Part shown: piece after piece, positions 55,441 to 63,150 of the stretch
How positions within the stretch are numbered: position 1 is the first letter of the stretch
Layout of the letters: each line of letters begins with the position of its first letter
Assembly (NCBI GenBank): GCA_964606305.1
Contig: CAZSGJ010000002.1
Span: 27,749 to 91,748 of the forward strand
Source of the DNA: an uncultured Armatimonadia bacterium
Lineage (GTDB): Bacteria > Armatimonadota > Armatimonadia > Armatimonadales > Armatimonadaceae
Length of the DNA: 64,000 bases
Reading direction: 5' to 3'
Made by a program: the position numbers and the translations under genes
The notes under the pieces: model-generated
Seen by the model: the letters and a program-made list of their open reading frames with translations, nothing else
The model's database searches: none
What the model was told of the DNA's origin: nothing

Positions 55441-56595
55441 TCAAAGTGAGTCAACAAAGCGACCTATCCGGACAATCGCCTCTTCGAGAAGTTTCGGGGC
55501 TGTGGCATAACAACAGCGCACATGCCCCATACCTCCCGGACCAAAGACATCTCCGGGAACCACTAGGACCCGTTCTTCATGCAGGAGTCGCTCCGCAAAC
55601 GTTGATGCATCCAATCCAGTGTGTTCAATGTTTGGAAAAGCATAGAATGCACCACCAGGAAGTTCACACGGAATACCCACACGGTTTAGGCCAGCAACAA
55701 ACATCCTGCGCCGTCTATCATAATCTTCCACCATGTCGGCGACATCTCGCTCACCATGTCTGATAGCTTCCAACGCTGCAATCTGCGATGTAATGGGAGC
55801 GCATAGCATTGTGTACTGGTGGATTTTCATCATCGCTTCGATAATCGGTGCCGGTGCGCAAACATACCCGACACGCCACCCAGTCATCGCATAAGCTTTG
55901 CTAAACCCATTTAGTAAAATCGTGCGTTCTTTGGCACCATCCAGTCCGGCCACACAAACGTGGGGCGCATCGTATGACAGGCGGTCGTAGATTTCATCGG
56001 TGAGGATATAGAGATCGTGCGACGCAGCAACATCGACAACATCCTGAAGCTCTCTTCTGCCCATCGTTGCACCCGTCGGATTCGTGGGATAGCTGAGCAG
56101 GATGGCCTTTGTGTTGGGCGTAATGAAACGGGAAAGCTGGTCAGCACGGACCTTGAAGCCATCCGCGGCACGTGTGGGAACAGGAACGGGCGTACCACCA
56201 GCAAACATCACACATGGCGCATACGACACATAGCACGGTTCCGGTACGAGGACTTCATCGCCAGGATTCAATATCGCCCGGAATGCCGCATCGAGTCCCT
56301 CAGAGACACCAACCGTGATGAGGACTTCATTTCGATGGTTGTATTCAATGCCGTAACGGCTGGAGACGAGCTGGACGATCGCATCCCGAAGCTCTAATAG
56401 TCCATAGTTACTGGTGTAGGTCGTTCTACCCTGCTCAAGGCTGTGTATTGCAGCCTCGCGGACTCTCCAAGGTGTTATGAAATCAGGTTCACCTACACCC
56501 AGCGAGATGACATCATCCATCTCCGCAACAAGGTCAAAAAACTTTCGTATGCCGGATGCTGGCAGATTAGTTACTGTTTTTGAGAGGCTTTTCAC
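55441..56595 (-). CDS. PLP-dependent class I/II aminotransferase (aspartate/aromatic type)
   Basis: The PLP-lysine motif (SFSKAYAMTGWRVGY) and N.TG and P.NPTG motifs are present. Confidence 0.88.
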   Translation of the reverse strand: MKSLSKTVTNLPASGIRKFFDLVAEMDDVISLGVGEPDFITPWRVREAAIHSLEQGRTTYTSNYGLLELRDAIVQLVSSRYGIEYNHRNEVLITVGVSEGLDAAFRAILNPGDEVLVPEPCYVSYAPCVMFAGGTPVPVPTRAADGFKVRADQLSRFITPNTKAILLSYPTNPTGATMGRRELQDVVDVAASHDLYILTDEIYDRLSYDAPHVCVAGLDGAKERTILLNGFSKAYAMTGWRVGYVCAPAPIIEAMMKIHQYTMLCAPITSQIAALEAIRHGERDVADMVEDYDRRRRMFVAGLNRVGIPCELPGGAFYAFPNIEHTGLDASTFAERLLHEERVLVVPGDVFGPGGMGHVRCCYATAPKLLEEAIVRIGRFVDSL

Positions 56596-57095
56596 GGCGT
56601 AACCGCCAGACGTTCGTCGTTAGCCGGTCTCGCAAAGGCATCCCCTTCCTGCTTGTAGCACTTAAGGACGAAGCGGGTGGCCGTGCCGCGAACGCCATCG
56701 ATAGTTGCCAAACGTTCTGCAACAAAGCTGGCGACATCCTGCATCGTTTGCCCACGCACAACCACGCGGAGATCCTGCGATCCCGTAACAAGATGCACGC
56801 TTACCACCTCAGGAAACTGGCGTATGCGGTCTGCAATCCGATCGTAACCGTATCCGCGTTCAGGCTGCACCGCCAAGTCGATAAAGCTCTCCACGGGAGG
56901 TGATGTCACCGCTTCCCACTTTATTCTCGCACGGTAACCTGCGATGACTCCAATCGACTCGAGGCGGACACGCATCCGTTGTACAGTTTCTACATCAGAT
57001 CCAAGTACGGTGGCCAATTGATCATCCGTTATGCGAGCATTGGACTCAATTGTTTTGAGAAGTTGTTCTTCTGATTCGGAAATGTTCACGAGCAC
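56592..57095 (-). CDS. Lrp/AsnC-family transcriptional regulator
   Basis: N-terminal HTH region and a C-terminal AsnC-type fold (VVSVHLVTGSQDLRVVVR). Overlaps the aminotransferase start by 4 nt. Confidence 0.8.
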   Translation of the reverse strand: MLVNISESEEQLLKTIESNARITDDQLATVLGSDVETVQRMRVRLESIGVIAGYRARIKWEAVTSPPVESFIDLAVQPERGYGYDRIADRIRQFPEVVSVHLVTGSQDLRVVVRGQTMQDVASFVAERLATIDGVRGTATRFVLKCYKQEGDAFARPANDERLAVTP

Positions 57096-57098
57096 GGT

Positions 57099-58454
57099 TT
57101 ACAACCCCAACTCATCCATCAAGGTTGGGAGGAACTTTGTCGAAATCGCATTAGTTCGGTACCGTTCATCGGCAAGGATTGTCTTCAGGAACGATACGTT
57201 TGTAGGCAGTCCATCAACAGAAACTTCTGACAATGCACATTCCATTCGTACGATTGCTTCGTCTCGGGATGGCGCCCAAACAATCAACTTAGCAAGGTTT
57301 GAATCGTAATACGGAGGAACCGTGTAGCCGGAGTAACACTGCGAATCAATACGGATACCGAGTCCGCCAGGCATGATGAAGGATGACATTTTGCCAGCAC
57401 TCGGAGCAAATCCCTTGTCTGGATTCTGTGCAGTAACGCGACACTCAATTGAGTGACCATTCCAATTGACATCGTCCTGGGAAATAGTAAGTTGGTCACC
57501 TGCAGCAATCCGAATCTGCCACTTTACGAGGTCAATGCCAGTTACAGCCTCGGTAACAGGGTGTTCTACCTGAATGCGGGTGTTCATTTCCATGAAGTAG
57601 AAGTCACCATCTGGCGTGTAAATGAACTCCACAGTTCCGGCATTTGCGTACCCAACCGCTTTCGCGGCACGAACAGCAGCCTCGCCCATTGCAGTACGCT
57701 GATGAGGCGTGAGCGAAACACTGGGCGCTTCCTCGACAACCTTTTGGTGGCGCACAGTTTGCACCGTACATTCCCGCTCCCCCAAATGAATTACATTGCC
57801 ATGTTCATCTGCGAGGATCTGCACCTCTATATGACGCATGTCCGTGATGTACTTCTCAAGATAAACGCCCGCATTGCCGAACGCAGCCTCCGCTTCTGCC
57901 TGAGCCACTTTCAACACTTTGAGAAGTTCTTCTTCAGACCATGCAACGCGGATTCCCCGACCACCACCGCCTGCTGTTGCCTTTACGACAACCGGATAAC
58001 CAATCGCTCCGGCGATACGACGTGCATCTTCATCCGATGTCAACAACCCATCTGAACCAGGAACTGTGGGGACGCCAGCAGCGAGTGCAGTTTCACGGGC
58101 GGTTGCCTTGTCTCCCATTTGTTCAATGGCGGATACAGGAGGACCAATGAACTTTACGCCAATGGCATTGCAGATCTCGGCGAAACTAGCCACTTCGGAC
58201 AGAAATCCATAGCCCGGATGAACAGCATCTGCACCTGTGTTGCGCGCTGCAGCCACGATATTCGGAATGTTGAGGTACGAATCTTTACTGGCACTGGGTC
58301 CTACGCAAACAGCTTCATCCGCGAGCCTCACATGTAATGAGTCTGCATCGGCATCGGAGTGGATGGCAACCGTTGCCACACCGAGCTCCCGACATGCCCT
58401 GATGACACGCACAGCTATTTCGCCACGGTTGGCAATGAGAACTTTCTTAAACAT
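57099..58454 (-). CDS. accC: Acetyl-CoA carboxylase biotin carboxylase subunit
   Basis: MFKKVLIANRGEIAVRVIRAC N-terminus, an ATP-grasp fold (GGGGRGIR) and MNTRIQVEHPVTE. Confidence 0.97.
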   Translation of the reverse strand: MFKKVLIANRGEIAVRVIRACRELGVATVAIHSDADADSLHVRLADEAVCVGPSASKDSYLNIPNIVAAARNTGADAVHPGYGFLSEVASFAEICNAIGVKFIGPPVSAIEQMGDKATARETALAAGVPTVPGSDGLLTSDEDARRIAGAIGYPVVVKATAGGGGRGIRVAWSEEELLKVLKVAQAEAEAAFGNAGVYLEKYITDMRHIEVQILADEHGNVIHLGERECTVQTVRHQKVVEEAPSVSLTPHQRTAMGEAAVRAAKAVGYANAGTVEFIYTPDGDFYFMEMNTRIQVEHPVTEAVTGIDLVKWQIRIAAGDQLTISQDDVNWNGHSIECRVTAQNPDKGFAPSAGKMSSFIMPGGLGIRIDSQCYSGYTVPPYYDSNLAKLIVWAPSRDEAIVRMECALSEVSVDGLPTNVSFLKTILADERYRTNAISTKFLPTLMDELGL

Positions 58455-58474
58455 CTGTGTAACGTCTATCTCCG

Positions 58475-58843
58475 TTAAGGGTTGGAGGTCGAAATGAATC
58501 CAGCAGATTGGCTTACAACACCTGTAGCAGGATCATAGTTGAGGGGAGTCTTCGTGTTTGGATCAACAATCATTTGCTCTGTCACCCCGTATGGCTTCAA
58601 GTCGCTCAAGCTTGGCGGTAACTGATCATCGTGATCCATTTTGTACATCGTAATCGCTTGCTGTATTTGCGAAATGTACTCATTACCTGCAGTGATTCTT
58701 GCACGCTGCGTCGGTGTCGGTACTTTCCGACCGGCTTTGTCAACGCCACCGCCGCCTGTTACGTAACGAACAACAAAAACAGCAAGCACAGCAATTATGG
58801 CAATCGTAAGCAAAGTCCCGACGAGTGAAAATCCGCGTCTCAA
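58475..58843 (-). CDS. GspG-like pseudopilin with an atypical prepilin N-terminus (Gly at +5)
   Basis: N-terminus MRRG|FSLVGTLLTIAIIAVLAV. The C-terminal part resembles major T2SS pseudopilins (ISQIQQAITMYKMDHDDQLPPSLSDL...DPNTKTPLNYDP). Overlaps the upstream BCCP-like stop by 4 nt. Confidence 0.7.
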   Translation of the reverse strand: MRRGFSLVGTLLTIAIIAVLAVFVVRYVTGGGGVDKAGRKVPTPTQRARITAGNEYISQIQQAITMYKMDHDDQLPPSLSDLKPYGVTEQMIVDPNTKTPLNYDPATGVVSQSAGFISTSNP

Positions 58844-59259
58844 CTGGATTTACTCTCAAGAAGCGCAAACAAAATCTGACCATACTCCACAGGTTGACCA
58901 GGCTCCACGTGAACTGCGGTAATAACACCGGAAACCGGAGAAACAATCGCATTGGTGATGCCGACCGTATCTACAGCACCAAGCGCCCGAGTACCGTCAA
59001 CGATGTCACCAACTACAAATGCCGGCTCAGCGGGCACAAACACGCCCACACTTTGTGCGGTAACGGAATGGGTCGCCGTCTTGTCCGCTGCCGATGTAAT
59101 GCTCTCAGAATCCACAGGAACATCAACATCAGAAATAGCAATACTGCGCCGCAAGCGAACATGGATGCCATCGGCGATGACTTCAAGCTCTGTCATTTGT
59201 GGTTGCGATGACATCGCTGCCGCATAGGCTTCAATCAAACTCGTATCCATCGTTACCAC
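58840..59259 (-). CDS. Biotin carboxyl carrier protein (BCCP) homologue lacking the biotinyl-lysine
   Basis: BCCP-like N-terminus (MTELEVIADGIHVRLRR) and biotinyl-domain core (VGDIV..., SGVITAVHVEPGQPVEYGQ). The EAMKM box reads VDTVGIT, with codon GGC at the Lys position. The start is GTG 59259 or ATG 59250. Confidence 0.8.
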   Translation of the reverse strand: MVTMDTSLIEAYAAAMSSQPQMTELEVIADGIHVRLRRSIAISDVDVPVDSESITSAADKTATHSVTAQSVGVFVPAEPAFVVGDIVDGTRALGAVDTVGITNAIVSPVSGVITAVHVEPGQPVEYGQILFALLESKSS

Positions 59260-60362
59260 TTCTTTTCAAAAATAGCCCATTCAAGTGCATGGATAATCTT
59301 TGCAATGACCATGATCGAACCGGCAATGACAAACAACCAAATGGCGGATTCGTTCGGCTTAGCAACCTTTATCGCAGTCGTAGGATCGCCCGTAAAAGCG
59401 AATCTCCGAACTGTCATCTCGATGGCATTCATCACATTACCAACGGAATCACGCATCTCATATCCAAGGAAAGCACACAAGGCAATAGACAGCGTCATCA
59501 CCACTGGCAAGAGAATCTTGTACTTCTCGCGTTGATGCTCATTATAGATGATGCAGTTTCTGCAGCGTTCGACTTTCTGAGCATCCGAGAGAAAGACAAC
59601 CTTTTTCGGAGTGCTATTATTCGCGTAATTTTGCGACTCACTCGGAGCCATTTCTAGGACCGTCCCGCGGGACTTTTTCGTCGCAATATTTACGATTTCT
59701 TCATCGCAGTAGCAACCACGCCGTCGTTGCCAACATGTGTCCTTGGCTTTGAATATTGGACAGTGTGTTCGGACATAATCCCGGCAGTAAGCACCTTCCC
59801 AGCACTTACCGATGAGCGACATTCTGACCGGTCGGTCTTCCCTCTTGGCATCGTTACCAAACTGTAAGTCGGATGCAACCTTGCTTTGGCGCTCAACGGA
59901 ACGTATCACGCGAACGATCAGGTCCCGGACAACGAGTATGAGTGCAATCAGTCCAGGCGCCATTGCAGCGACTGGAAACTTCGCCACGGTCATTCTCATA
60001 GCAACCGAGGGCTCGCCACCCATACTGGCGAATGCCATCGGTACTCCAAAGTAGAGAGCTCCGGCCAATATGGCCATCAGGTAGCCTGCGGTTTCCTCGA
60101 ACCAGAATATGACCAGAGAGCAAATAGAGCCAACAACAGCCGCTGCAAGCATCGCATTTCCAGCAAGGTTAATATTCCCAAGCATCGTAACTTGACGCGT
60201 TCTGTCCCAAGATGCAAAGTCTCCCAAACCGAAAAACACGCCATAAAGTAAGTATGCCGTGGCGATTCCAAAAACGATGATGCAAATGTGAAACACATTG
60301 CTGGCAAAGGCCAGCATCACCGGTGTGCTTGCTCCAGTGCGACTATACTGCTCCTGGTCCAT
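59253..60362 (-). CDS. Polytopic membrane protein with a central Cys-rich module
   Basis: 369 aa with about 4 TM segments, then CWEGAYC-x7-C-x8-C-x6-CYC...CRNC (8 Cys), then 2 more TM segments. I recognised no family. The stop overlaps or abuts the BCCP-like start. Confidence 0.65.
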   Translation of the reverse strand: MDQEQYSRTGASTPVMLAFASNVFHICIIVFGIATAYLLYGVFFGLGDFASWDRTRQVTMLGNINLAGNAMLAAAVVGSICSLVIFWFEETAGYLMAILAGALYFGVPMAFASMGGEPSVAMRMTVAKFPVAAMAPGLIALILVVRDLIVRVIRSVERQSKVASDLQFGNDAKREDRPVRMSLIGKCWEGAYCRDYVRTHCPIFKAKDTCWQRRRGCYCDEEIVNIATKKSRGTVLEMAPSESQNYANNSTPKKVVFLSDAQKVERCRNCIIYNEHQREKYKILLPVVMTLSIALCAFLGYEMRDSVGNVMNAIEMTVRRFAFTGDPTTAIKVAKPNESAIWLFVIAGSIMVIAKIIHALEWAIFEKKW

Positions 60363-60369
60363 ATTCTTC

Positions 60370-60927
60370 CTACTTTACGCGTTCAAGGTAAGTATCAGTG
60401 CGTGTATCGACGCGCACTTTATCTCCTTGATTAACGAAAAATGGAACACGGATGACAGCCCCTGTCTCTAATGTGGCAGGTTTGCTTCCTCCGGATGCCG
60501 TATCACCCTTAAAGCCAGGATCGGTTTCAGTGATTACCAGCTCCATAAAGTCGGGAGCCGTGACCTGCACAATCTCTTCCTTAAAGATAATGACCTGAAC
60601 ATCGGTGTTTTCCTTCAGGTACTTTTCCTTTTCACCGATCAACTTACGATCCACAGTTACCTGTTCAAAGGTCTCCATGTCCATCAGGTGAAAGTCTGAA
60701 CCTTCGGAATAGAGGAACTGCATCACCTTACGGTCGAGGCGCGCTTGTTCAATCTTTTCACCTGCGTTCCAAGTACGATCAATAGTCGCACCCGTTCGCA
60801 GATTCTTCATTTTGGAACGTACAAACGCTCCGCCTTTACCTGGCTTGACATGTTGAAACTCAACAATGGTGTAGATGTCATTGTTGAACAAGATCGACAA
60901 GCCGTTTCGAAAATCTCCAGTATCCAT
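60370..60927 (-). CDS. efp: Elongation factor P
   Basis: 185 aa with FRNGL, HVKPGKGGAFVR.K.KN and VPFFV motifs. Confidence 0.97.
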   Translation of the reverse strand: MDTGDFRNGLSILFNNDIYTIVEFQHVKPGKGGAFVRSKMKNLRTGATIDRTWNAGEKIEQARLDRKVMQFLYSEGSDFHLMDMETFEQVTVDRKLIGEKEKYLKENTDVQVIIFKEEIVQVTAPDFMELVITETDPGFKGDTASGGSKPATLETGAVIRVPFFVNQGDKVRVDTRTDTYLERVK

Positions 60928-60954
60928 ACGGGCAGATTATAGCACGATAAAGAA

Positions 60955-60982
60955 AGCCCCCGGTTCGCGAGAACCGGGGGCT
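60955..60982 (-). terminator. Intrinsic terminator after the SLH outer-membrane protein gene
   Basis: 12-bp GC-rich stem AGCCCCCGGTTC/GAACCGGGGGCT with a 4-nt loop. On the minus strand it is followed by TTCTTTAT. Confidence 0.75.
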
Positions 60983-61012
60983 TGACTTTTAGCTGCGCAA
61001 GCGCAGTTCAGG

Positions 61013-62890
61013 TTAGAACTTAACCGAGAACTGGGTTGCAACAACTCCGCCCTTCTGGACGTCAGCTGTACCATCGTTGTACGAAACAACCTGGTAGAGC
61101 AAACGGAAGGTCGAAGTAGCGCTAAGGGTCTTTGCATAGGCATAGTTCGTGAATGTCTCACGTCCCTTGAGTGCGCCTGCATCCGTGTACTTGGTAACTT
61201 CCTGGGAAACAGAGAAGTCAGATGTTGAACCCAGCTTGTAGGTGAAACCTGCTCTGGTGTTCTCGGACTTCTGATCCTTGGTGTTGCCACCCTTGTCAGT
61301 ACCGGTGTAGTTCTGAGTTGCCAACATAACGTTCAACTTGGATGTTGGGGTCCAGTTCCAGGATCCGTAACCACCCTTGATGTCGGTTGGGTTGACGTTG
61401 GTACCCATACGGCCCCAGCTACCTGGTGCACCGAAGAGAGGCTCAACTTCACGGTAACCACCGGACAGGGTCCAGGAGCCGTTGGACAACTTGGTGTGTA
61501 CATTGTAAGCAGAGTTGTCGCGAACGTTGACGTTAGCGCCACCCAAGCGGGTGTTGGACTCAGCGTACTCACCGTAGACATCAAGGCCAAAGAGCTTGAT
61601 CTTAGCATCAGCGCCATAGACGTTGACCTGATCGAAGTCACCATTGGACTGTCCAGCTGCCAATACGGTGCTGACACCAACTGGGATGCTGAAGAGCTTG
61701 AAGCCTGCACGTCCACCAGCAACACGGCTGACAGTGATACCAGTGGAGTTCGGGGCTCCGATTTGGTCTGCACGGTCAAATGTGTAAGGAGCCTTCAAAC
61801 CAGCCTTGATACCGGTGGAGAGGGTTGCATCTCCGCCATTGATCAGGGATGAGTTAGCGATTGGATCCGTCTTACCAGCAAGCGCTGTGATGGAGAATGG
61901 ACCAAGCTTGAAGGATGCATTCAAACCGTCAACAAGGTAGTTGCCGTTATCGGTCTTGTTGTTGTTGAAGTAAGCATCAACATCGTATGCCTTGAAGGTC
62001 AAAGCAGACATTTGGCTTGGCACACGTCCGATGTTCGCTGCAACCGTTCCGAGAACAGGGATGCTCTGCTTGGTGGAGTAGACAGCCTTGTAGATGGTCT
62101 GACCCTGATCAGCGGTTCCGTTTGCATACTGAGCAATGGAGCCCAATGATGGCAGGTAGTTACCGAAGTTGAGGGTTACATCTACCGAAGGTGCGGAGAT
62201 GTTGACATCGAGGTCATGGCGAACCGTGCTCGTACCGAGAACGGTCGATCCAGCAGCGATTGCGGCGCTGTTGTAATCGAGTGCACCGAGACCGTTGGTG
62301 CCAAAGTCACCACGAACGTATGCATTGAATGCACCGGAGATCTTGACAGCGTTCTTGTTTGCTGCTTCGAGAGCTGCAATACGCTTTTCATGATTGTCAA
62401 GGGTCTTCTTTGCCTTGTCTACATCCACGCCAAGGGTGGTAAGTTCCGTCTGGAACTCAGCAACCATCTTGCGGATGAGGTCAATGTCAGACTGCTTTGC
62501 AAGTCCGGACATATCAACCTTAACAGGTGCAGGGATGTCAGACTTCTTGGCATAGCCACCGAGCAGGTCCTGAACCTGATCCATGGAAACACCGGCCTTA
62601 ACTTCAGGTGCTGCTGGCAGAGGAGCCTTAACGTAAGTAGCATCCGCCCAGCGAACGATACGGTCTACAACCATCGCGAGCTCGTAGCGGGTCAGGGAAC
62701 GCTTACCTGCGAACTTGCCATCGGTGTCACCGATAAAGACCTTGTCCTTGGCCAAGCGCTCGATTGCCTGGTATGCCCAGTGATCATTTGGAACGTCCTT
62801 GAAAGGACCATCCTGTGCGAACACAGGTGCGACGCCAATTCCGGCGAGCGTCACTGCGAGTGCGCCGACGGTCATCGTCATATTCTTCAT
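61013..62890 (-). CDS. SLH-domain / coiled-coil / beta-barrel outer-membrane protein (OmpM/Slp-like)
   Basis: GAGGAAA RBS, then a signal peptide from Met 62890 (MKNMTMTVGALAVTLAGIGVAPVFAQ). An SLH domain follows (FKDVPNDHWAYQAIERLA...LTRYELA), then a coiled coil. The long beta-strand-rich C-terminus ends in ...FSVKF. Confidence 0.85.
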   Translation of the reverse strand: MKNMTMTVGALAVTLAGIGVAPVFAQDGPFKDVPNDHWAYQAIERLAKDKVFIGDTDGKFAGKRSLTRYELAMVVDRIVRWADATYVKAPLPAAPEVKAGVSMDQVQDLLGGYAKKSDIPAPVKVDMSGLAKQSDIDLIRKMVAEFQTELTTLGVDVDKAKKTLDNHEKRIAALEAANKNAVKISGAFNAYVRGDFGTNGLGALDYNSAAIAAGSTVLGTSTVRHDLDVNISAPSVDVTLNFGNYLPSLGSIAQYANGTADQGQTIYKAVYSTKQSIPVLGTVAANIGRVPSQMSALTFKAYDVDAYFNNNKTDNGNYLVDGLNASFKLGPFSITALAGKTDPIANSSLINGGDATLSTGIKAGLKAPYTFDRADQIGAPNSTGITVSRVAGGRAGFKLFSIPVGVSTVLAAGQSNGDFDQVNVYGADAKIKLFGLDVYGEYAESNTRLGGANVNVRDNSAYNVHTKLSNGSWTLSGGYREVEPLFGAPGSWGRMGTNVNPTDIKGGYGSWNWTPTSKLNVMLATQNYTGTDKGGNTKDQKSENTRAGFTYKLGSTSDFSVSQEVTKYTDAGALKGRETFTNYAYAKTLSATSTFRLLYQVVSYNDGTADVQKGGVVATQFSVKF

Positions 62891-63150
62891 TATTTTCCTC
62901 AAATACATCGTGCAATTGGAGTTGCACAACAGGTTTCAAAATCCGACACCGTGAGGAAGAAGACCGCTAACGGGTAGTATCCATGTTGCCTTCCGCAAGC
63001 ATTGGCTGCTTTCGCACTACGTTGTCGTTCAGTAACCAATGTATATGATAACCGAAACTGGGCCGAGTTTCAGAAAAATTAAGAATTTATTACAGGGTAC
63101 GGACACATATCCAAGAATCCGGCACCGGCTTTGATAACCCCAACAACCCC

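Follow-up and report, generated by a model that had tools for sequence, protein, structure and literature searches.

The window analysed here, a 64,000-nt stretch of DNA from an uncultured Armatimonadia bacterium, contains a block of seven tightly packed genes, all on the minus strand. In the direction of transcription, these are efp (60370..60927), encoding elongation factor P (185 aa; TIGR00038, 255 bits against a cut-off of 186, with all three EF-P Pfam domains matched); a gene for an orphan polytopic membrane protein (59253..60362; 369 aa) with no Pfam or NCBIfam family; a gene for an AccB paralog, here termed BCCP2 (58840..59259; 139 aa, or 136 aa from the ATG at 59250); a gene for a small pilin-like protein (58475..58843; 122 aa; PF07963, 17 bits against a cut-off of 21.2); accC (57099..58454), encoding biotin carboxylase (451 aa; TIGR00514, 692 bits against a cut-off of 626); lrp (56592..57095), encoding an Lrp/AsnC-type regulator (167 aa; PF01037, 61 bits); and aat (55441..56595), encoding a class I/II PLP aminotransferase (384 aa; PF00155, 236 bits; nearest model PRK07682, 542 bits against a cut-off of 620). 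The gap between efp and the membrane-protein gene is 7 nt; the membrane-protein gene and BCCP2 overlap by 7 nt if BCCP2 starts at the GTG at 59259, or lie 2 nt apart if it starts at the ATG at 59250; BCCP2 and the pilin-like gene overlap by 4 nt; the pilin-like gene and accC are separated by 20 nt, and accC and lrp by 3 nt; and lrp and aat overlap by 4 nt. The original prediction, which had named seven minus-strand genes here, is borne out: all ORFs were found, every predicted junction was reproduced from the ORF coordinates, and the labels efp, accC, Lrp/AsnC, aminotransferase, and BCCP-like are supported by profile scores.

The spacer upstream of efp contains a terminator followed by a candidate promoter. 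Specifically, the intrinsic-terminator hairpin of the upstream SLH-porin gene (60954..60983, minus strand; 13-bp stem with 9 G-C pairs, T-rich tail) lies 27 nt ahead of the efp ATG, and an extended −10 box, TGCTATAAT (60936..60944, minus strand), is positioned 8 nt 5′ of this ATG, which lacks a Shine-Dalgarno sequence. Six genus relatives share the spacer at 97% identity, and a G-C to A-T change in the terminator stem is compensated; the −10 box is unchanged in seven sequences and is the sole occurrence of TGnTAnAAT in the block. Genome-wide, TANNNT peaks at −12 relative to start codons (136 versus ~25), indicating that leaderless mRNAs are common in this genome, and TGCTATAAT is likely the promoter that opens the block, giving a leaderless or near-leaderless transcript. 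Scanning the block revealed no convincing internal terminator or promoter. In particular, across the two strands of the 8.5-kb region scanned, the 12 terminator-like sites represent no excess over shuffled sequences (8.0 ± 2.9), and the three minus-strand sites in the block are weak and fall in coding sequence, in agreement with the earlier report that no hairpin terminator interrupts the genes. The block is probably a single transcription unit, in which transcription would begin at the extended −10 promoter, just past the terminator of the porin gene.

BCCP2 comprises an N-terminal BCCP region, a linker, and a biotinyl-type domain without the biotinyl-lysine and without the "thumb". It scores 29.4 bits against PF00364 (cut-off 22.1) and 43.7 bits against TIGR00531 (cut-off 115). 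Codons 96–101 (58957..58974, minus strand) encode a V-D-T-V-G-I hairpin that corresponds to V-E-A-M-K-M in Escherichia coli BCCP, with Gly100 (58960–58962) aligned to E. coli K122 in HMMER alignments to 1a6x and 4hr7. The motif (I/V)DTVGIT is present in 48/50 database homologs (68–99% identity), the remaining two being one with DIDTVGIT and one truncated fragment. The description of this protein as "Lys-less" holds for the biotinylation hairpin and not for the rest of the chain, where K60 and K137 are present. The substitution of Gly for Lys, together with the shortened thumb, indicates that the canonical site of BCCP2 cannot be biotinylated and that the protein is unable to carry CO2. BCCP2 still has the N-terminal ELEV...VRLRR region, profile searches against Pfam and NCBIfam identified no nucleic-acid-binding motif, and a signal peptide, a TM segment, and a coiled-coil hairpin are all absent.

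A census of 48 genomes from ~40 families revealed two accB paralogs across the phylum. The first, solo accB, is present in all 48 genomes, retains the Lys of the AMK biotinylation motif in all 48, has a thumb segment of 18 residues in 47/48, and adjoins hom in 40/47; in the genome studied here it lies on a separate contig (G000:C3), with motif IEAMKV, the thumb kept, and hom directly after it. In no genome of the census is solo accB linked to accC. The second, BCCP2, is located beside accC as a full-length, intact ORF in 47/48 genomes; it lacks the Lys in 28 of these 47, with G, R, H, T, N, S, or Q in its place, and keeps it in the other 19 lineages, and its thumb segment has 13 residues in 25/45. 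In the cultured relatives Armatimonas rosea and Chthonomonas calidirosea, the Lys of BCCP2 is replaced by H and N, respectively. Two of the Lys-less copies (genomes G041 and G167) have a Lys one position later, and it is possible that this shifted Lys is in use. In a phylogenetic tree, a branch with 99% support sets the solo copies apart, indicating a single old duplication and identifying BCCP2 as an ancient AccB paralog. When the K/non-K state was mapped onto a tree of the neighbouring accC genes, no fewer than 8 changes were required, 6 or more of them forced by strongly supported branches, and the lysine was lost independently at least 6–8 times. The main finding, which the sequence of the window alone could not reveal, is that the canonical accB lies elsewhere and that the copy linked to accC is an ancient paralog in which the Lys was lost many times. 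The working biotin carrier of this genome is the solo AccB, not BCCP2; Lys-keeping BCCP2 copies might still be working carriers, in which case the function of the family would be heterogeneous.

BCCP2 is under purifying selection, has an intact ORF, and is packed against the only accC of the genome. Within the genus its dN/dS is 0.105, compared with 0.015 for accC; its dN (0.168) is the highest of the block, indicating that the constraint on BCCP2 is looser than that on its neighbours. No frameshifted copies were seen among the sampled genomes, and in Lys-less copies the hairpin residues flanking the lost Lys (I, E/D, S/A/T, M/L) are conserved. The accC gene is single-copy, the next whole-genome match scoring just 52 bits, and the genome also holds one accD–accA pair and one birA. 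Other biotinyl/lipoyl-type matches above the Pfam cut-off are two ~400-aa ORFs and the lipoyl domain of an E1-lipoyl-FabH fusion, which is not a carboxylase.

The membrane protein has six predicted TM helices, with a basic loop (residues ~151–281) between TM4 and TM5 that carries eight Cys invariant in an alignment of homologs (C187, C193, C201, C210, C217, C219, C267, and C270), in line with its earlier label as Cys-rich, and also the motif CRNCIIYNEHQR. The Cys-rich loop is probably cytoplasmic, because basic residues flank it. In an AF2 model, the helices are confident and the Cys region has a pLDDT below 50. At E ≤ 0.01, neither Pfam nor NCBIfam gave a match; relaxing the threshold in Pfam and the PDB brought up only chance-level hits, and no detectable homology to any secretion component emerged from the three databases. 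A homolog is present in 192/201 genomes of the phylum, and all named homologs are from Armatimonadota and annotated as "hypothetical protein"; as judged from these searches, the protein is an orphan family.

The pilin-like protein has a leader, MRRG|FSLVG, followed by a hydrophobic helix, a Gly-rich linker, and a small helical/beta head bearing a conserved YDPxTG motif. The label "pseudopilin" given to it earlier is weakly supported for this copy, which scores below cut-off and has Gly in place of Glu at +5, and is better supported for its orthologs, of which 20/25 match PF07963 and 18/25 match TIGR02532. Its AF2 model (pLDDT 72) gave no significant match in Foldseek. The best small structural neighbours, all below significance, are type IV pilins; the non-significant match to Clostridioides difficile PilA1 has an rmsd of 2.4 Å over 65 columns.

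The core of the block, efp/membrane protein/BCCP2/pilin-like/accC, recurs across Armatimonadota orders, and its order persists at membrane-protein identities as low as ~26%; lack of conservation beyond this genome, named beforehand as a refuting observation, was not what we found. The efp gene is inside the cluster in 38/47 genomes, the membrane-protein gene is directly 5′ of BCCP2 in at least 28/47, and the pilin-like ORF is located between BCCP2 and accC at 34/39 loci. The lrp–aat tail after accC is restricted to this genus; lrp was seen in this position in the close relatives whose fetched DNA extends there (L033, L034, and L036–L038). The cluster is modular: some families have efp–BCCP2–accC or efp–BCCP2–pilin–accC, seven sampled genomes have efp–BCCP2–accC without either insert, and in one family efp and the membrane-protein gene remain paired with the acc genes elsewhere. 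BCCP2 remains beside accC in families whose cluster lacks the membrane-protein gene, and no recurrent partner of the membrane-protein gene was found outside the cluster. The core would represent an Armatimonadota-wide elaboration of an efp–accB–accC arrangement, with the lrp–aat pair as a genus-level addition, and the membrane and pilin-like proteins appear to be co-inherited envelope proteins. The proposal of a functional module accordingly stands in part: the conserved core and the absence of internal terminators or promoters favour it, whereas conservation covers only five of the seven genes and the cluster is modular. Joint action of the three inserted genes with acetyl-CoA carboxylase (ACC) is suggested by synteny.

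For BCCP2, the reading that we favour, at slightly better than even odds, is that of a non-catalytic partner of biotin carboxylase resembling the plant BADC proteins, as suggested by its sequence and gene position. Its biotinyl-type domain and the N-terminal BCCP region that it has kept would mediate binding to biotin carboxylase, and it would serve as a scaffold, or compete with holo-AccB, setting ACC activity. A purely cytoplasmic role of this kind leaves the two envelope-type genes of the cluster unaccounted for. It is possible, although we think it unlikely, that BCCP2 forms a complex with the pilin-like protein, anchored in the membrane, and with the presumed cytoplasmic Cys8 domain of the membrane protein. 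In this stronger version of the module first proposed, the complex would retain biotin carboxylase at the inner membrane or set it free, such that malonyl-CoA supply tracks the envelope, redox, or metal state, in parallel to BADC and the CTI dock in plastids. The frequent placement of the two genes on either side of BCCP2, gene ends that overlap or nearly touch, the near-universal presence of the membrane protein in the phylum, the probably cytoplasmic location of its Cys-rich loop, and the plant precedent for docking of ACCase to a membrane (PMC7712654) are consistent with such a complex. However, the modularity of the cluster, including the genomes that lack both inserts, those that lack the membrane-protein gene in the cluster, and the family that pairs this gene with efp away from the acc genes, argues against it, as do the lack of a recurrent partner elsewhere and the topology of a pilin-type head, which would point into the periplasm, away from ACC.

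The remaining readings concern BCCP2 itself. The unlinked state of solo accB and accC throughout the census would call for a balancing device, and BCCP2, which keeps the N-terminal BCCP region and sits just 5′ of accC, could mainly be an expression regulator rather than an enzyme subunit, tuning accC transcription or translation to solo AccB. The N-terminal part of E. coli AccB reportedly represses accBC expression; an N-terminal-only role does not explain the conserved biotinyl-type domain and hairpin flanks, and BCCP2 lacks a nucleic-acid-binding motif, such that we regard this role as improbable. A place outside ACC, as a biotin/lipoyl-like adaptor of its envelope neighbours of a HlyD-like type, with the adjacency to accC being historical, would fit the genes for membrane proteins on both sides of BCCP2, a score of 31.7 bits against PF13533 (Biotin_lipoyl_2), and weak matches to HlyD_3 and RND adaptor models. 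These matches, however, span only the 30-residue C-terminal half-barrel common to all such domains, BCCPs provide both the top full-length model and the closest solved relatives, the export and coiled-coil features noted above are missing, and BCCP2 keeps its place beside accC where the membrane-protein gene is absent, making an adaptor role very improbable. Least probable, in our estimate, is that BCCP2 is a functionless relic of operon inertia, with, for example, a frame that carries downstream translation signals. Its highest dN in the block, its score far under the BCCP cut-off, and the many Lys losses, as expected if catalytic constraint is relaxed, point in this direction, but a dN/dS far under 1, intact full-length ORFs phylum-wide, the conserved Gly motif and hairpin flanks after Lys loss, and the absence of frameshifts point away from it.

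Among known systems, BCCP2 can be compared with E. coli AccB/BCCP (TIGR00531; PDB 1BDO, 1A6X, and 4HR7), with which it shares the three-part organization with a Pro/Ala-type linker, the G-x-F and GQPVEYGQ blocks, and a gene immediately 5′ of accC. It differs in having Gly100 for K122, a thumb segment of 13 rather than 18 residues, a score far below the family cut-off, and a canonical carrier encoded by a separate gene. The pilin-like protein shares with T2SS/T4P pseudopilins (GspG; TIGR02532/PF07963) a short basic leader, a Gly-Phe cleavage site, and a hydrophobic helix of ~20 residues, and its orthologs match N_methyl and GspG models; in contrast, this copy has Gly rather than Glu at +5 and falls under both curated cut-offs, a Gly-rich linker interrupts the long pilin helix in the model, and the gene lies within a fatty-acid synthesis gene pair with no assembly genes nearby. 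In Bacillus subtilis, the order is efp, the spoIIIA operon, and accB–accC. Envelope-related genes are thus inserted between efp and the acc genes in both cases, but here they are one membrane-protein gene and one pilin-like gene rather than an eight-gene channel operon, and SpoIIIA components have no detectable homology to the Armatimonadota membrane protein; the comparison is a positional analogy only.

In plants, CTI proteins (carboxyltransferase interactors) dock ACCase to the plastid envelope (PMC7712654). The likeness is in concept only, namely a genetic tie between a membrane protein and heteromeric ACC: CTI is a single-pass coiled-coil protein that binds alpha-CT, whereas the protein here is a six-TM Cys8 orphan encoded near biotin carboxylase and BCCP2. 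The plant BADCs, BCCP homologs that are not biotinylated, compete with BCCP for binding to biotin carboxylase, and are described as non-catalytic subunits acting as competitors or as helpers of BC–BCCP subcomplex assembly (PMC7712654; PMC11889953; bioRxiv 10.1101/634550). We found no description of a bacterial equivalent in the open-access literature. Like the BADCs of plants and green algae (Arabidopsis BADC1–3, plastid heteromeric ACCase), BCCP2 is a BCCP homolog without the biotinyl-lysine, coexists with a canonical BCCP in one genome, and is associated with biotin carboxylase, here by gene position. Unlike them, BCCP2 is bacterial, is encoded in a probable operon with accC, and belongs to an Armatimonadota paralog clade in which the Lys was lost at least 6–8 separate times, indicating that it arose independently of BADC and is not its ortholog.

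The third gene of the minus-strand block at window 55441-60927 (efp, a gene for a membrane protein with eight cysteines, BCCP2, a pilin-like gene, accC, lrp, and an aminotransferase gene) encodes a BCCP homolog with an altered biotinylation site. BCCP2 (window 58840-59259, minus strand) matches PF00364 with 29.4 bits against a cut-off of 22.1 and aligns to positions 55-153 of the 156 positions of TIGR00531, with the BCCP layout recognised; the closest solved structures are BCCPs. Its TIGR00531 score is 43.7 bits against a curated equivalog cut-off of 115.2 bits, and the product of the solo accB of the same genome scores 81.8 bits. The description of this protein as Lys-less in the original prediction is borne out: VDTVGI aligns to VEAMKM of E. 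coli BCCP, placing Gly100 at the position of K122. An alignment artefact at the lysine column was rejected, since HMMER against E. coli BCCP and a MAFFT alignment of 93 sequences agree on the column. As judged from the sequence, BCCP2 cannot be biotinylated at the canonical site. By gene position, it is tied to the only biotin carboxylase gene of the genome. The motif (I/V)DTVGIT is present in 48 of 50 database homologs (68-99% identity), the remaining two being one protein with DIDTVGIT and one truncated fragment. Public records label BCCP2 proteins 'acetyl-CoA carboxylase biotin carboxyl carrier protein'.

The 'thumb', an insertion between strands 2 and 3, is typical of ACC carriers. Measured from G-x-F to V-G, the thumb segment comprises 13 residues in the window BCCP2 and 18 residues, with an E. 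coli-like FYRxPSP pattern, in 47 of 48 solo AccB proteins; the E. coli segment, GTFYRTPSPDAKAFIEVG, likewise has 18 (our own count from the 1a6x alignment). A segment of 13 residues is found in 25 of 45 BCCP2 copies, lysine kept or lost alike. Because three defining features are absent (the lysine, the thumb, and the curated score), we do not file BCCP2 as AccB.

A second BCCP gene, with the canonical motif IEAMKV, is located on another contig of the same genome (G000:C3:29230-29664; positions 1339-1773 of extracted locus L001), with the homoserine dehydrogenase gene hom directly 3′. The genome carries accC once, in the window, and likewise a single accD-accA pair and a single birA. A further candidate, a second carboxylase with its own carrier, was suggested by a fourth biotinyl/lipoyl match in a pyruvate-carboxylase-like ORF (G000:C94:1668-5027) and was rejected: the ORF has no BC domain, carries an EADK lipoyl motif, and is a fusion of 2-oxoacid dehydrogenase E1 alpha/beta, lipoyl, and FabH-like (ketoacyl synthase III) parts in one 1120-aa chain, not a biotin enzyme. 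This fusion may convert branched 2-oxoacids to fatty-acid primers on a single chain. With a single accC, and with the fusion being no carboxylase, solo AccB must be the working carrier for the window AccC.

The pairing of the two BCCP genes extends across the phylum. In a census of 48 genomes from about 40 families, the solo copy is present in all 48 and the accC-linked BCCP2 in 47. Solo accB adjoins hom in 40 of 47 Armatimonadota genomes, hom starting within 1-50 nt; the accB-hom pair is a second phylum-wide linkage, one whose metabolic logic is not obvious. In an unrooted phylogeny of 93 sequences, a branch supported at 99% separates the solo copies from the rest, which fits a single old duplication with either copy as the original.

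The two paralogs differ in retention of the biotinyl-lysine, which is kept in 48 of 48 solo copies and in 19 of 47 BCCP2 copies. In the other 28 of the 47 genomes, the BCCP2 lysine is replaced by G, R, H, T, N, S, or Q, a count to be read with the caveat that in two of the Lys-less copies position +1 is Lys. Mapping the K/non-K state onto the tree of the adjacent accC requires at least eight changes, at least six of them forced by strongly supported branches, indicating that the lysine was lost repeatedly and independently. The residues around the lost lysine stay conserved in BCCP2 (I, E/D, S/A/T, and M/L). Within the genus, BCCP2 has the highest dN in the block (0.168) and a dN/dS of 0.105, indicative of purifying selection. 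On the strength of this dN/dS, of ORFs that are intact throughout the phylum, and of the fixation of the Gly motif, the reading of BCCP2 as a pseudogene or relic was rejected, and a functionless BCCP2 is to our minds highly improbable.

The layout of the block agrees with the original prediction: all seven minus-strand ORFs are at the positions it gave, and so are the junctions. Specifically, efp and the membrane-protein gene are separated by 7 nt; the membrane-protein gene and BCCP2 overlap by 7 nt with GTG 59259 as start codon, or are separated by 2 nt with ATG 59250; BCCP2 and the pilin-like gene overlap by 4 nt; a 20-nt gap precedes accC and a 3-nt gap precedes lrp; and lrp and the aminotransferase gene overlap by 4 nt. 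Most of the gene labels are likewise upheld by family searches, the exceptions being the membrane protein, which matches no family, and the window copy of the pilin-like protein, which is below the N_methyl cut-off. The efp product matches TIGR00038 with 255.4 bits (cut-off 185.8) as well as EFP_N, EFP, and Elong-fact-P_C; the accC product matches TIGR00514 over its full length with 692 bits (equivalog cut-off 626.5); and the aminotransferase gene product is of class I/II. The Lrp/AsnC-type protein matches PF01037 with 61.2 bits (cut-off 25), is borderline for HTH_24 (20.4 against 21.9), and reaches no equivalog cut-off.

The proposal that the block is an undescribed functional module is supported in part, for a five-gene order and not for the seven-gene unit. 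The refuting condition of the original prediction, a gene order confined to this genome, does not hold for efp, membrane protein, BCCP-like, pilin-like, and accC: their order recurs in Armatimonadales, Capsulimonadales, and Chthonomonadales (34 named loci), at membrane-protein identities down to 26%. The lrp and aminotransferase genes lie downstream of accC in the six closest relatives only, and we therefore take the conserved unit to be five genes. In the second sample, of 48 genomes, at least 28 of 47 have the membrane-protein gene immediately 5′ of the BCCP-like gene, 38 of 47 have efp inside the cluster, and in 34 of 39 a pilin-like ORF separates the BCCP-like gene from accC. Reduced versions of the cluster, efp-BCCP-accC and efp-BCCP-pilin-accC, also occur, and in one family efp and the membrane-protein gene stay paired and the acc genes lie at another place; the cluster is thus modular. 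The gene directly upstream of efp (window 61013-62929) encodes a protein with an SLH domain and a long C-terminal part rich in beta structure, resembling OmpM/Slp-type outer-membrane tethers, and this adjacency is kept at family level (loci L040, L041, L043, and L044). Locus L043 (CAZUJM010000405.1) is a 3.4-kb contig binned as 'uncultured Pirellulaceae' that carries the SLH-porin gene, efp (81% identical), and the eight-cysteine gene; this gene order is the Armatimonadota order, and the contig is probably mis-binned.

The transcription signals predicted in the block fit one transcript from efp onward. A hairpin scan identifies a strong minus-strand terminator at 60983-60954, at the end of the upstream SLH-porin gene. 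The terminator lies in the 85 nt that separate efp from the SLH-porin gene (window 60928-61012), a spacer that also contains a small hairpin, CTGCGCTTGCGCAG, and an extended −10 box; on the minus strand, the terminator is followed by TGCTATAAT, which is 8 nt away from the efp ATG and is accompanied by no Shine-Dalgarno sequence. The spacer is 97% identical in genus relatives, though synonymous sites of the flanking genes are near saturation, and one pair of the terminator stem shows a compensated change among these relatives. The sequence TGnTAnAAT occurs nowhere else in the block. Across the whole genome, TANNNT is about five times commoner at −12/−11 before the first start codons of long ORFs than at other positions (136 and 64 occurrences versus about 25 elsewhere; 2410 ORFs), and the peak at −12 indicates that leaderless mRNAs are common in this organism. 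As had been reported, the block has no convincing internal hairpin terminator: the terminator-like sites there are weak and all within coding sequence, and such sites are no commoner across the scanned region than in shuffles. An Rfam match to Tymo_tRNA-like on the opposite strand to the terminator (window 60989-61073, plus strand) scores 31.8 bits against a gathering score of 40 and is taken as chance.

The eight-cysteine membrane protein (369 aa) is a phylum-wide orphan: of 201 genomes drawn from the whole phylum, 192 encode a homolog, and its named relatives are all Armatimonadota, mostly freshwater MAGs. None of 27 members matches a Pfam or NCBIfam family, and sequence and profile searches against the PDB return chance-level matches only. 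The AF2 model has six confident helices and, between helices 4 and 5, a loop of 100 residues with pLDDT below 50. The loop contains eight invariant cysteines and an invariant CRNCIIYNEHQR motif, which together suggest a metal site, zinc or iron-sulfur, and the basic residues at its flanks indicate that it is probably cytoplasmic. A prepilin-peptidase-like identity, considered because of the cytoplasmic Cys pairs, was rejected, there being no invariant Asp and no A24 match. The analogy drawn earlier with the SpoIIIA secretion-like genes does not extend to homology for this protein, which has none to described secretion or pilus components in Pfam, NCBIfam, or PDB profile searches. Outside the cluster the gene has no recurrent partner, its neighbours varying from genome to genome and including bioB-like, T2SSE ATPase, sigma-54 activator, and methyltransferase genes. 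Two of these are single cases: a bioB-like radical-SAM/BATS gene 3′ of the eight-cysteine gene (L171, G048:C1, 4755-7063), and two T2SSE (PilB/PilT-type) ATPase genes 5′ of it (L167, G046:C1, 1164-6020). In one family, the protein has an N-terminal extension of ~260 residues that is Pro/Ala-rich and of low complexity (L167 4218-6020, L168 4914-6710).

The label 'pseudopilin' holds for the family, which is of prepilin-type descent, and less well for the window copy, which is a degenerate member on the evidence of its motif scores. In particular, the window copy scores 17.0 against 21.2 for PF07963 and 13.8 against 16.3 for TIGR02532 and has Gly, not Glu, at +5; among 25 orthologs, PF07963 is matched in 20 (best E 4.7e-8), TIGR02532 in 18, and GspG weakly in 14. 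The AF2 model (pLDDT 72.1) contains a helix at 7-29, a helix at 44-70, and small strands, the usual long helix being interrupted by a Gly-rich linker; a Foldseek search with this model returned nothing at E ≤ 0.001, with pilins among the weak matches. Many orthologs (for example L045 11598-11948, L051 7090-7461, and L066 11735-12133) end in CPxGGxxYxYDPxTGxVxCPHPGHE with conserved Cys, possibly a zinc or disulfide site. In the window's family and in Capsulimonadaceae, the tail Cys/His residues are lost and +5 is often Gly.

Our preferred reading, held with moderate confidence, is that BCCP2 is a non-catalytic partner of biotin carboxylase that either serves as a scaffold or competes with holo-AccB. 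It is consistent with the recognised BCCP layout, the conserved surroundings of the lost lysine, and the position beside the single accC. That BCCP2 instead joins the two adjacent envelope proteins in a control complex docked at the membrane would draw on the five-gene order; set beside it are the simpler clusters with efp, BCCP, and accC only, and we consider it rather unlikely. A more specific form, which we judge clearly unlikely, is membrane-tethered control of the first step of fatty-acid synthesis, in which BCCP2, the eight-cysteine membrane protein, and the pilin-derived anchor would hold or release the only biotin carboxylase. The membrane protein would then be an Fe-S or zinc protein, and envelope, redox, or metal state would set malonyl-CoA production.

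Two further alternatives place BCCP2 outside the enzyme. A regulator of accC expression would also lie next to accC, as BCCP2 does; the conserved residues around the lost lysine count against it, and we find this role quite improbable. An envelope adaptor outside ACC would suit the membrane-protein and pilin-like neighbours; against it, the closest solved structures are BCCPs, and it seems to us very doubtful.

In bacteria, acetyl-CoA carboxylase, a drug and engineering target, is regarded as the product of four genes (accA, accB, accC, and accD). Searches of open-access text yielded no account of a Lys-less BCCP subunit in bacteria, no mention of BCCP in Armatimonadetes, and no paper linking spoIIIA, accB, and efp together. 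The present analysis adds three points: throughout the phylum a solo accB-hom is paired with a thumbless paralog linked to accC, the lysine of BCCP2 was lost repeatedly, and two Armatimonadota-specific envelope genes are present within an acc cluster. A fifth, non-biotinylatable BCCP-type subunit, if real, would alter the modelling of bacterial ACC stoichiometry and regulation; the public annotation of BCCP2 as carrier would be wrong, the true carrier being encoded next to hom. Armatimonadota offer a natural experiment in BCCP2 lysine loss, and the question is directly testable because orthologs with and without the lysine are available in culture: BCCP2 has His in its place in Armatimonas rosea and Asn in Chthonomonas calidirosea, and Capsulimonas and Fimbriimonas strains are examples that retain it.

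We infer that BCCP2 is a BADC-like, non-catalytic bacterial BCCP in a new gene context. Plant BADC proteins are BCCP homologs that lack a biotin site; they compete for biotin carboxylase with BCCP or, in an alternative role, aid in assembling the BC-BCCP subcomplex (PMC7712654; PMC11889953; bioRxiv 10.1101/634550). BCCP2 resembles them in being a BCCP homolog without the biotinyl-lysine and in coexisting with a canonical BCCP, a pattern that 28 of the 47 Armatimonadota genomes show; binding to biotin carboxylase would be a further resemblance, with the adjacency of BCCP2 to the single accC as its evidence. BCCP2 differs from BADC, as the latter is described in the literature, in that its lysine losses arose inside one bacterial paralog clade, and these repeated losses argue for an origin independent of BADC, without orthology. 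BADC-type subunits would then no longer be a plant peculiarity, and membrane-tethered control, if it were to hold, would make the Armatimonadota cluster a counterpart, evolved independently in bacteria, of the plant system of BADC and CTI, the CTI proteins being those that dock ACCase to the plastid envelope.
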